From a virus: 64,000 nucleotides of DNA. The DNA lies in IMG/VR virus record IMGVR_UViG_3300027759_003534, positions 118,567-182,566 of that record, one strand, 5' to 3'. Shown piece after piece: positions 39,780 to 45,601 of the stretch. The notes below the pieces were generated by a model. The model was not told the DNA's origin, made no database searches, and worked only from the letters and a program-made list of their open reading frames with translations. Position 1 is the stretch's first letter, and each line of letters starts with the position of its first letter. Both the position numbers and the translations under genes were made by a program.

Positions 39780-39858
39780 GTTGTTTCCTTGTGTTATATT
39801 TTACTTATAACTGGAATAGCTGGCAATTAAAATTCTGGTGGGCCCTGAAGGTGTTTTG

Positions 39859-39932
39859 TGGACCCCTCCGGACTCGAACCGGAATAGTACAAATTATGAG
39901 TTTGCGGCAATAACCAATTATGCTAGAGGTCC
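39859..39932 (-). tRNA. tRNA with CAT anticodon, probably Ile2 (lysidine) type; CCA not encoded
   Basis: GGACCTC/GGGGTCC acceptor with C4-G69, C5-G68; loop CT-CAT-AA; T-arm TCCGG-TTCGAGT-CCGGA. Confidence 0.8.
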
Positions 39933-39958
39933 ACAAAACATCCTTGCCCTACAAAACT

Positions 39959-40048
39959 TGGCGGAAGCGGTCCGATTCGAACGGACGGAGGATTTAACTC
40001 CTCGGCAGGTTAGTAATCTGCTGGTTTCGGCCACTCACCCACGCTTCC
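39959..40048 (-). tRNA. tRNA-Ser with ACT anticodon (type II)
   Basis: GGAAGCG/CGCTTCC-G-CCA, long variable arm, anticodon loop TT-ACT-AA, A31.C39 mismatch. Confidence 0.8.
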
Positions 40049-40056
40049 GTACAACT

Positions 40057-40132
40057 TGGCGCTCCCGACCGGATTCGAACCGGTGTACTTGCCGTGAAAG
40101 GGCAATGTCCTAGGCCTCTAGACGACGGGAGC
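40057..40132 (-). tRNA. tRNA-Glu(TTC)
   Basis: GCTCCCG/CGGGAGC-G-CCA, TTGCC-CT-TTC-AC-GGCAA, ACCGG-TTCGAAT-CCGGT. Confidence 0.95.
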
Positions 40133-40139
40133 CTGTACT

Positions 40140-40301
40140 TTACCTCATGAATTGTTGTTGCTTAATGGCCTTGTTGATAGCTTTGATGCGTTGGTTGGCG
40201 TCCATGATACTACGGCTAGCCGATTCGCGTTTTTCACTCTTGGTCCACTGTCCTGCAAGGGTACGGCCTAATTCACTTGATGTTTGTTGTGGCTTTGCCA
40301 T
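40140..40301 (-). CDS. 53-aa basic hypothetical protein (MAKPQQTSSELGR...)
   Basis: Below track cutoff; begins immediately after rpoZ-like stop. Confidence 0.6.
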   Translation of the reverse strand: MAKPQQTSSELGRTLAGQWTKSEKRESASRSIMDANQRIKAINKAIKQQQFMR

Positions 40302-40302
40302 G

Positions 40303-40530
40303 CTATTTTACCTTTGCTAAGTAATCAACTAAATTGACCTGCCCTGCTTGGATTTCATGCAGTGCATCTACGCAGGTCACATAACGGTTGGTGTCTTCAC
40401 GGTGAACACGTTTGAGTTCACGCAGTCGTTGTGCGCCAATTAGGACCATGTCATAACGTCCGCCGCCAGCTTGACGTACACACTGTTCCATATCAATCGC
40501 TGGGCCACGACTTGCAATTCTTGCTTTCAT
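40303..40530 (-). CDS. rpoZ: RNA polymerase omega subunit homologue
   Basis: RYDMVLIGAQRLREL and VDALHEIQAGQV match RpoZ RFxLVLxAAxRARQL and xALxEIxxG motifs; AGGAGA SD. Confidence 0.75.
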   Translation of the reverse strand: MKARIASRGPAIDMEQCVRQAGGGRYDMVLIGAQRLRELKRVHREDTNRYVTCVDALHEIQAGQVNLVDYLAKVK

Positions 40531-40553
40531 GATATCTCCTGTTGTAAAAGTGT

Positions 40554-40582
40554 ATTATATATTAAATTGATGGCAATGTCAA
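40554..40582 (-). promoter_or_regulatory. Consensus sigma70 promoter TTGACA-N17-TATAAT for rpoZ-like gene
   Basis: -35 at 40577-40582, -10 at 40554-40559. Confidence 0.9.
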
Positions 40583-40631
40583 TATGAGTATGCTCATTTG
40601 ATCTTGTTAAAATTGAACAACGGCACGTTGA

Positions 40632-41255
40632 TTATACCGGCTCTTTATTTGTTATATTTAAATATTCTTGATATAGTTCTTCCCAATTTAAAATTATGTT
40701 TTTAAAAAAATAAGGACTTTTTTGATGTACCTTCCCAACTCGCAATTCATTGTATTCTAAGCCCAATTCGTCAGCAAGAAATTTTGCCCCTTGATCTATT
40801 AGATCTTCGTAGTAAATTGTTACAACTTTTTTATAAACAGATAAATTAACTTTATGGTCCCAACTACGCTTTGATTTTAGTAAATTAATAAATTTTAATT
40901 TGTCAATGACAGTTGGCTCTACAACTTTGCTACTATAATCTTTACCGCTCCATTCATTGACTATGTTGGCTACAATAACACTCATTAATTGAGCAAATAC
41001 ATCTTTCCTGAGACTTATTATTAAAGTTACAGTTGCTGGATCTAAATCTTTGATTAAATTAATGTCATGCAGATGTATTACTACATTTTGATCTTTAATA
41101 TGTTGCCGACATTCTTTTTCATTCATCGGAAGCCATAGCCCGTACGCATCAGCTAATCCTCCTTTATTAAACGGAGTACCTGCTAACATCTCTAGTATAA
41201 TATGACTTCCGGTTCTTCCTGGAGAAAAAATAGTATAGACACTGTTCATGCCCAT
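40632..41255 (-). CDS. Sulfotransferase-like (Stf0-like) protein
   Basis: FSPGRTGSH, SLRKDVFAQLMS, IYYED; very AT-rich; TATAAATA at 41255-41262. Confidence 0.55.
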   Translation of the reverse strand: MGMNSVYTIFSPGRTGSHIILEMLAGTPFNKGGLADAYGLWLPMNEKECRQHIKDQNVVIHLHDINLIKDLDPATVTLIISLRKDVFAQLMSVIVANIVNEWSGKDYSSKVVEPTVIDKLKFINLLKSKRSWDHKVNLSVYKKVVTIYYEDLIDQGAKFLADELGLEYNELRVGKVHQKSPYFFKNIILNWEELYQEYLNITNKEPV

Positions 41256-41325
41256 ATTTATAGATCAATTCCGCTTGTCTCAATGTTTCCATTCGTTATA
41301 AAAATTTGTGTGTTGACCGTTAGCA

Positions 41326-41402
41326 TGGTACCCTGGGGAGGATTCGGACCTCCACATTCCGATTTCTTGGACCGGTGACTTTACCTGTTTGTCTACCAGG
41401 GC
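41326..41402 (-). tRNA. Atypical tRNA, AAG anticodon (Leu-like), short variable loop
   Basis: GCCCTGG/CCAGGGT-A-CCA; anticodon arm CCGGT-CC-AAG-AA-ATCGG (C33); T loop TCCGAAT. Confidence 0.65.
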
Positions 41403-41408
41403 TAATTT

Positions 41409-42020
41409 TTACATTGTTACTTGTGTGGTACCATTACCGTTTTGAAAACCTATTACACCACCTTCTGCTTCGATCCGTTTAATTACATCTTCGAACAGTA
41501 TTGGAGCAAAATCAGTTTGCTCAACACAAACACAGTGGTAGCGCACATCGTTCTCATCACTGTAAAGAAGTTCTCCGGTCTTGACGTTTACTCCACGAAT
41601 TTTCTTTACGCGATTTGCGTGAGTATGTCCGTGAATATTGACTCCAAAACGTCCTAAGCTTTCTGGGTGAACCGGAATGTGACTAAGTATCATTCCGTTC
41701 ATAACATGGTATCCACGTAGACTTCTAAAGTAAGGAGTGTAGTCCTCGTCTTTAAAGATATCATGGTTGCCACGTATAAGAACTTTGTCACCGTTGAGCC
41801 TGTTCAAGATAGGCAAAGCCCGGCGGTTGATAACCACATCACCCAAGTGATACACTTTGTCATTAGGGCGAACACGGTTGTTCCACGCTTCGACCATAAA
41901 CTCGTCCATTTCTTCCGGAGTGTCAAATGGACGCAACTTGGTTACACCATCATTACGGGTGAAGTGGCACACACCTTTGTGACCAAAGTGAGTATCGCTT
42001 ACTAAAAATACACTAGGCAT
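41409..42020 (-). CDS. Calcineurin-like metallophosphoesterase
   Basis: SDTHFGH, HLGDV, RGNHD, SHIP, HGHTH; AGGAGG SD before ATG 42020. Confidence 0.92.
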   Translation of the reverse strand: MPSVFLVSDTHFGHKGVCHFTRNDGVTKLRPFDTPEEMDEFMVEAWNNRVRPNDKVYHLGDVVINRRALPILNRLNGDKVLIRGNHDIFKDEDYTPYFRSLRGYHVMNGMILSHIPVHPESLGRFGVNIHGHTHANRVKKIRGVNVKTGELLYSDENDVRYHCVCVEQTDFAPILFEDVIKRIEAEGGVIGFQNGNGTTQVTM

Positions 42021-42042
42021 ATGTGCCTCCTTTCTTTGTGAT

Positions 42043-42116
42043 TGGCGCCGGTCTAAGGAATCGAACCTCAATTAACGGTTTTGGAGACCGCTGTAATGCC
42101 ATTATACCAGACCGAC
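42043..42116 (-). tRNA. tRNA-Trp(CCA)
   Basis: GTCGGTC/GACCGGC-G-CCA, GCGGT-CT-CCA-AA-ACCGT. Confidence 0.93.
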
Positions 42117-42117
42117 C

Positions 42118-42195
42118 TGGAGGTGAAGGTTGGATTCGAACCAACGATTGTAGAGATTTGCAGTCACTTGCCTTGGACCACTCGGCCACTTCACC
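42118..42195 (-). tRNA. tRNA-Cys(GCA)
   Basis: GGTGAAG/CTTCACC-T-CCA (U73), CT-GCA-AA loop; 1 nt from tRNA-Trp. Confidence 0.93.
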
Positions 42196-45142: not shown

Positions 45143-45170
45143 TAAAAAGAAACCCGCCGAAGCGGGTTCT
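45143..45170 (-). terminator. Intrinsic terminator after tmRNA
   Basis: AGAACCCGC-TTCG-GCGGGTTTCT-TTTT. Confidence 0.9.
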
Positions 45171-45492
45171 ACTATTTTCTGTTACGAGGGATAATTCCCC
45201 TAAGCAGTGATTAAACTGCTAATGGTTGGCGTTGTGCTGTGCGAGCAGAGAATTTAACATTCTTACCAGTTACAGTTACTTCGCCTTTAGATGCGTTTGC
45301 ATTTAAAGTTTTTGTGTCTTCGACTGAGTAGTCCCAATCCTAACGGCTTCTACATTGCCGATCCTCCAGTAGCCCTTTAGCGCCAATCGATTCTAATTCA
45401 TCCCCACCGCAGAATACTATCTAATACTCTCCGGTGGAGATGTCGGGAGTTGCACCCGAGTCTTGATCGCCATACTTCTACCTTCAACGAAT
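45171..45492 (-). ncRNA. ssrA: Circularly permuted (two-piece) tmRNA; tag ANASKGEVTVTGKNVKFSARTAQRQPLAV* at 45211-45300
   Basis: Acceptor piece (T-arm TCGGG-TGCAACT-CCCGA, CATCTCC-A-CC, ends ~45433) precedes coding piece starting GGGGATG at 45405; G3.U pair; resume TAAAT|GCA AAC. Confidence 0.9.
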
Positions 45493-45498
45493 TCTTTA

Positions 45499-45527
45499 AT
45501 TATACCCTTTAACATTCTTACCGTCAA
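45499..45527 (-). promoter_or_regulatory. sigma70 promoter TTGACG-N17-TATAAT for tmRNA
   Basis: -35 45522-45527, -10 45499-45504. Confidence 0.85.
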
Positions 45528-45601
45528 TCTTAGGATTACCTTTTGCGTGAACATCTTGAAACTTATTACGATCACGCCCATATTGAGTATTTAGTATAAC
45601 A

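Follow-up and report, generated by a model that had tools for sequence, protein, structure and literature searches.

The minus strand of the window, that is, the whole 64,000-nucleotide stretch of DNA analyzed, carries a circularly permuted tmRNA (ssrA) gene of the known two-piece kind, and the tag that it encodes has 29 residues and ends in Leu-Ala-Val (LAV). The gene is genuine and more than a chance likeness, because of its score against the Rfam permuted-tmRNA model RF04321 and because its pairing and covariation lay above shuffled and slid controls. The earlier note had proposed a phage-encoded permuted tmRNA with such a tag, and this was borne out by the RF04321 match, the ARAGORN calls in relatives, the covariation, and the selection on the tag frame. 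Two-piece tmRNAs of phages are already known; the 29-residue tag family, the exchange of its cassette, and the Clp machinery in relatives are new, with putative functions.

The window makes up the final 64 kb of an IMG/VR virus record that is 182,566 bases long and has a CheckV completeness of 49%. The same record codes for a T4-type major capsid protein (Gp23, 326 bits), which places the permuted ssrA in a T4-like myophage; the source is a T4-like jumbo phage from lakes, about half of whose genome is in the record. The stretch recurred in lake and freshwater metagenomes from several studies in a search of sequencing runs. A BLAST search against 50,697 GenBank phage records gave no match to the tmRNA gene or to the surrounding 20 kb. 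The neighbors of the tmRNA gene are a T4 rnh-like exonuclease, a MazG-like protein, and radical SAM enzymes, and ARAGORN located six tRNA genes in the window at 39858-42195.

Structure and fold of the tmRNA gene

RF04321 matched window positions 45492-45211 (-) over the full model (1-213) with 75.7 bits (E = 1e-12) against a gathering cut-off of 47 bits, and the fold was thus accepted by a permuted-tmRNA covariance model. The alphaproteobacterial model RF01849 scored 51.1 bits (cut-off, 50) and matched only at model positions 80-179 of 355, which correspond to the tRNA-like part. ARAGORN, which the earlier note had named as a check, called no tmRNA in the window and missed 20 of 37 related stretches; its support came from relatives, in which version 1.2.41 called permuted tmRNAs with the identical 29-residue frame. 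The miss is a limit of the tool and not evidence against the gene. As the window gene and many relatives are overlooked in this way, ARAGORN-based pipelines under-count phage tmRNAs.

The gene has the permuted order, in which the T-arm and the acceptor 3′ strand come first and the acceptor 5′ strand follows after a 27-nt segment, and the same order was found in 25 homologues. All gene features given below are on the minus strand. The acceptor piece, the 5′ part of the precursor, spans 45433..45492, with its 5′ end deduced from the promoter. It contains the T-arm (45459-45443, loop UGCAACU), the acceptor 3′ strand CAUCUCC (45442-45436), A73 (45435), and CC (45434-45433). The intervening segment (45406..45432) forms a hairpin that prolongs the acceptor helix and would be removed on maturation. 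The coding piece (45145..45405) runs from the acceptor 5′ strand GGGGAUG (45405-45399) to the terminator and includes the D-loop analogue. The two acceptor strands make a 7-bp stem with G3.U, and two further inter-piece helices are formed by UUGG-CGC (45386-45380) with GCG-A-UCAA (45470-45463) and by CUACU (45372-45368) with GGUAG (45482-45478). Two hairpins precede the tag (45360-45344 and 45339-45322), the hairpin GCAGU/ACUGC (45219-45204), read from the sequence, covers the stop codon, and another hairpin (45200-45187) follows it. The two pieces, the hairpin segment, the acceptor stem, both inter-piece helices, and the stop-codon hairpin are all present as the earlier note had described them.

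Covariation was evaluated in an alignment of 25 distinct homologous viral genes. RNAalifold found the T-arm, the acceptor stem, the intervening-segment helix, the post-stop hairpin, and the terminator, and pairs were counted on a structure that adds the inter-piece helices of the earlier note. Over the 25 homologues, 86% of the cells of this structure were paired, and the covariation score was 0.304; shuffles scored 0.137, with none of 500 reaching the observed value, and slid partners scored 0.06-0.09. Compensatory changes backed the acceptor stem, the T-arm, the intervening-segment helix, and four hairpins. The acceptor stem was paired in every gene (25/25, 100%); four of its seven pairs showed compensatory change, and pairs 4 to 7 alternated between two complementary versions. 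The G3.U alanine determinant was likewise present in all 25 genes, and UCCACC, including the A73 discriminator, was invariant. The T-arm was 97.6% paired with two covarying pairs, the intervening-segment helix 95.9% with five, the post-stop hairpin 97.5% with three, and the two pre-tag hairpins 100%. A single clean compensatory change, in the relative L137, was observed for the helix CUACU/GGUAG. The T-loop UGCAACU, with G at position 55, was considered as an oddity and set aside: more than 118 viral contigs share this 3′ end, as do genomes from many bacterial phyla, and bacterial tmRNAs commonly have G instead of U55, so that the feature is uninformative on the host.

The intervening segment ranges from 12 to more than 100 nt in relatives. 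In L022, L025, L044, and L057, it extends over 80-170 nt and opens with a ribosome-binding-site-like GGAG followed by ATG, which suggests that small genes may be nested in the spacers of these permuted tmRNAs. In L071 and L108, two permuted tmRNA T-arm/acceptor ends lie about 190 nt apart on one contig, and they may be tandem tmRNA genes or a duplicated acceptor piece.

The gene has its own sigma-70-type promoter at 45499..45527, as had been claimed, with the -35 box TTGACG (45527-45522), a 17-nt spacer, and the -10 box TATAAT (45504-45499), matching 11 of 12 consensus positions. Sites of this kind turn up readily in DNA as AT-rich as this (8 found against 4.0 expected), and the support for the promoter therefore rests on its position: the -10 box ends 7 nt ahead of the start of the Rfam match. 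The promoter and the terminator are placed exactly at the ends of the gene. The intrinsic terminator (45144..45169) has a stem of 45168-45162 with 45157-45151, a UUCG loop, and then a U run, with compensatory changes in relatives; the UUCG terminator described after the tag was thus found, at 45169-45150.

The promoter sits inside the last codons of a small upstream gene. The 3′ end of this conserved small protein gene (45496..45576, -) shows codon-wise conservation in 12 relatives and ends in ...IDGK.VKGYN and a stop, and TTGACGG...TATAAT-TAA, a near-consensus sigma-70 promoter, is kept at the end of the upstream gene in 12/12 relatives. Several relatives have other genes between the end of the small gene and the tmRNA gene. 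Because only the 3′ end of the small gene in the window aligns with the gene of the relatives, it may be no more than a remnant in this phage. The 15-nt sequence GGTAAGAATGTTAAA occurs as an exact direct repeat at 45522-45508 and 45267-45253 (-), and it encodes GKNVK in frame both in the end of the upstream gene and in the tag. The sharing of this repeat by the promoter spacer and the tag is probably due to chance, because it has no DNA-level conservation in relatives; less probably, the tag insert arose by gene conversion.

The independent freshwater metagenome run X2 contained one contig without differences over exactly the tmRNA gene (window 45145-45499), and the remaining contigs of that run diverge at the borders of the gene. 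From these contigs, the tmRNA gene looks like a conserved island common to several strains. The RNA libraries contained only small shares of the stretch. The RNA runs yielded contigs of relatives only, with a different intervening segment and no sign of expression or processing, so RNA ends cannot be read from them; one such contig extends far into both flanks of the tmRNA gene.

Tag peptide and its probable exchange between tmRNA scaffolds

The tag reading frame (45211..45300) begins at the resume codon GCA (45300-45298) in the context UAAAU|GCA, comprises 29 codons, and ends at the stop UAA (45213-45211). The tag reads ANASKGEVTVTGKNVKFSARTAQRQPLAV, and the Rfam alignment places UAAAUGCAAACG at the resume region. 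Both the resume context and the LAV-ending tag agreed with what the earlier note had written.

Among about 30 contigs, 17 distinct versions of the tag were found, all of 29 codons, with no indel and no stop, and both other frames were broken by stops in nearly all of the 17 sequences. The pooled pN/pS was 0.53 in the tag frame (0.39 without three divergent versions) and 1.1-2.6 in the other two frames, and these figures are descriptive, as the pairs compared are not independent and no formal test applies. Ala28 and Val29 were unchanged in 17/17 versions, residue 27 was Leu in 16/17, and the tag frame was the best conserved part of the gene. The tag evolves as a peptide, under selection. The conserved C-terminus and the conserved insert show that something reads the tag peptide, and the combination of the invariant Ala-Val end with the insert argues that recognition may occur at two places. 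The second half of the tag presumably resembles cyanobacterial and plastid tags; string searches on this likeness returned nothing useful.

The relatives were collected by three pattern scans of IMG/VR. The pattern of the T-arm and acceptor alone occurred in more than 118 viral contigs, nearly all of which were permuted tmRNA genes with ordinary 10-17-residue tags ending in LAA, and the long tag was found in about 30 contigs of up to 340 kb. A degenerate DNA pattern of the tag core had no match in one genome each of about 185,000 bacterial and archaeal species, a search from which diverged versions would escape. A full-text literature search with a seven-residue stretch of the tag retrieved no paper. 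Ordinary tags occur on almost the same tRNA-like domain, namely ANDELFAVAA in L153 and ANASNDEVFALAA in L150. Compared with the L150 tag, the long tag keeps both ends and has 48 extra bases in the middle and a Val ending. The long tag thus appears to be derived and mobile. No other peptide similar to the 16-residue insert was found when a donor was sought in the phage genome.

The identities of the tRNA-like part and of the tag-plus-tail part disagree between pairs of genes. The window gene is 83% identical to L150 in the tRNA-like part and 65% in tag and tail, and the corresponding values are 55% and 90% for the window gene and L132, 55% and 94% for L150 and L081, and 85% and 59% for L124 and L081. 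On a tree of the tRNA-like part, the tag type must have changed at least four times. A single long-tag clade was rejected on this part (log-likelihood difference of 77.7, p-AU of 0.0002, the latter weakened because the long-tag group was named after the alignment had been seen). Because the long tags are plainly homologous while the tRNA-like tree rejects a single clade, recombination that swaps the tag cassette between tmRNA scaffolds is the simplest reading.

Proposed ribosome-rescue pathway and alternative readings

We consider it probable that the gene yields a working two-piece tmRNA that is processed and charged by the host and whose tag is a two-part degron for a Clp-type unfoldase. For processing, charging, tagging, and the fate of the tagged proteins, we infer the following course, of which the steps from processing to resumption are those established for two-piece tmRNA. 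One precursor would be transcribed from the promoter (45527-45499) to the terminator (45169-45144). Host RNase P would cut ahead of G45405, the 27-nt segment between the pieces would be taken out after C45433 by host 3′ processing, and the missing A of CCA would come from the CCA-adding enzyme of the host. An acceptor piece of about 60 nt and a coding piece of about 260 nt would then be held together by the acceptor stem and the two further helices. Host AlaRS would charge the RNA via G3.U and A73, and host SmpB and EF-Tu would deliver it to ribosomes stalled on broken mRNAs. Translation would resume at GCA 45300 and add 29 residues ending in Leu-Ala-Val. In the two-part degron, the invariant hydrophobic end would be fed to a Clp-type unfoldase, and the 16-residue insert would be recognized either by an adaptor or directly by the unfoldase, which could be the ClpA-like protein or ClpX seen in relatives.

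The dependence on host factors was indicated by the gene content of these phages. Searches of the 182-kb record, which covers about half of the genome, gave no SmpB, CCA-adding enzyme, ClpP, or ClpS, and SmpB and the CCA-adding enzyme were also absent from five long-tag relatives, of which two have a completeness of 98% and 100%. The phage must therefore rely on host factors, and the remark in the earlier note that the window has no smpB holds for the record and for the near-complete relatives as well. The CCA end is not fully encoded, as had been noted: the window gene and its closest relatives have G after ACC, where others have A or T, and the last A must therefore be added after processing. 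The incomplete CCA, against a CCA encoded in five of the six tRNA genes of this phage, counts against the reading as a working gene.

Two readings in which the gene performs no rescue were weighed, and both are unlikely because the tag frame is selected and the gene is complete. The tRNA-like domain could soak up host SmpB as a decoy and block host trans-translation, leaving the tag frame vestigial, as might be expected from a phage without an SmpB of its own and from the inhibition of tmRNA in E. coli by an RNA consisting of only the tRNA-like domain (mycobacteriophage DS6A; PMC4131195, PMC11915505). We regard this as very improbable, as the tag frame is conserved better than any other part of the gene, is fixed in length, and evolves as a peptide, and the resume context and the stop-codon hairpin are intact. 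It is hardly credible that the gene is inert, a piece of a host ssrA that was acquired through imprecise excision or serves as an attachment site. Integration at ssrA is frequent, and fragments of this gene are often found in prophages (PMC9004378, PMC4383910), but here both pieces, the promoter, and the terminator are complete, and compensatory evolution over about 30 contigs shows selection. Moreover, inspection of the gene neighborhood revealed no integrase near the tmRNA gene, the phage is of the T4-like lytic type, and the tag pattern occurred in none of about 185,000 bacterial species genomes.

The fate of the tagged proteins allows a closer contest. The suggestion in the earlier note that the tag may alter the protease routing or half-life of rescued proteins is a hypothesis. 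How fast a tagged protein is degraded in E. coli depends on the last three residues of the tag, and the endings AAV and ASV still work there as weaker degrons (PMC9097571); because a final Val weakens ClpXP recognition there, the tag may equally be a poor degron. The main rival explanation, to which we give a limited chance, is that rescue works and the tag avoids rapid proteolysis, with the Val end and the long basic insert uncoupling rescue from destruction or giving the proteins another fate, which would spare protease capacity in infection. Val endings are indeed more stable than LAA in E. coli (PMC9097571), and sister genes with nearly the same tRNA-like domain keep LAA or VAA tags, so that the change of ending was selected and not inherited. 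However, a tag that is merely ignored would not keep its 29 codons, its Ala-Val end, and its insert under purifying selection, and the relatives invest in Clp unfoldases and ClpP.

Comparison with known tmRNAs and Clp genes in relatives

A published set of 133 distinct phage tmRNA structures contains 53 two-piece forms, nearly all of them from phages of aquatic habitats, the T4-like Melnitz among them (PMC9004378). The 2025 tmRNA database holds 79 phage sequences, and the most frequent tag length in it is 10 residues (PMC11915505). The closest likeness of the window gene is to those of Methylophilales phage Melnitz, Pelagibacter phage Mosig, and the pelagimyophages (PMC9004378), which are aquatic T4-like phages with a permuted ssrA of the alphaproteobacterial type and its own promoter; no phage smpB was reported for the Melnitz-type phages, and the window phage likewise has none. 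Unlike this group, the window phage comes from fresh water, has a genome about twice as large, and carries the 29-residue LAV tag in place of an ordinary short tag. A glutamine riboswitch in the 3′ domain is common in Melnitz-type ssrA but not defining (PMC9004378), and neither this nor any other riboswitch family was found at the Rfam cut-off anywhere in the window. Caulobacter ssrA (RF01849) shares the gene order, the tRNA-like domain, G3.U, and the resume context UAAAU GCA AAC, but the region from the tRNA domain to the tag, the tag itself, and the 3′ tail differ, and CCA is not fully encoded in the window gene. Mycobacteriophages and Bacillus phage G are similar in that large phages carry ssrA beside many tRNA genes (PMC4131195); unlike the window gene, the forms of mycobacteriophages, Bacillus phage G, and DS6A are one-piece or truncated and belong to phages of Gram-positive hosts (PMC4131195).

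The tag resembles the E. coli tag endings LVA, AAV, and ASV (PMC9097571) in its hydrophobic three-residue C-terminus, and the Val endings among these are still degrons. In contrast to the lab-made 11-residue tags of E. coli (PMC9097571), it is natural, basic, and 29 residues long, with an ending invariant in the phage lineage. To the extent that PMC9097571 cites it, the Lon-read tag of Mesoplasma florum is also a long ssrA tag that fits a protease other than the ClpXP of E. coli and sets a precedent for joint change in a tag and a protease; that tmRNA is, on the same account, bacterial and one-piece with an unrelated tag, whereas the protease partner of the window tag is only putative.

Phage tmRNAs are a means by which large phages top up the ribosome-rescue capacity of the host. 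Here, the tag is confined to phages and fixed in length, is under selection as a peptide, has a Val ending instead of Ala-Ala, and hops between scaffolds, which makes the tag itself a selected trait. If its reader is a phage Clp protein, the system would be a quality-control pathway owned by the virus and a source of orthogonal degradation tags for synthetic biology.

Clp genes were seen in relatives and not in the 182 kb of this phage. Seven of 12 records encoded a ClpA-like protein of about 760 residues, and none of the four records with a completeness of 66% or more lacked it. Three records had a true ClpX (NCBIfam equivalog, 509 bits) together with one or two ClpP genes, and in an alignment to a solved ClpX structure, the RKH loop of the ClpX of these relatives reads RKV. 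In L293 (G001:C1:303500-306500), L280 (G002:C1:196000-206000), and L294 (G003:C1:216500-221500), a protein quality-control set of the jumbo relatives was observed; it comprises a ClpA-like unfoldase, two ClpP paralogues, of which one is divergent, and a ClpX whose gene neighbor is an IbpA-like small heat-shock protein. The co-occurrence of the tag and Clp genes is a lead and not a finding, because it is confounded by relatedness and genome size. It is possible, but in our judgment improbable, that the tag is a private degron of phage-run proteolysis, read by the phage ClpA-like unfoldase, ClpX (RKV), and two ClpP paralogues, maybe together with a Bpt/ATE-like enzyme, and that tag cassettes are swapped as the reader changes. 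Bpt/ATE1-like transferases make N-degrons for ClpS-ClpAP. An ATE_C match (Bpt/ATE1-like aminoacyl-tRNA-protein transferase; 27.1 bits against a cut-off of 25) was observed in the same phage record outside the window (G000:C1:77651-77878).

Among twelve other tmRNA-bearing phage records, one had a ClpA-like gene, and it belonged to a related 357-kb phage with a 24-residue ALAA tag. In the lineage of this phage (L043 and L070), the 24-residue tag is another long tag, with a canonical ALAA end, and the start codon assigned to it by ARAGORN differs between L043 and L070.
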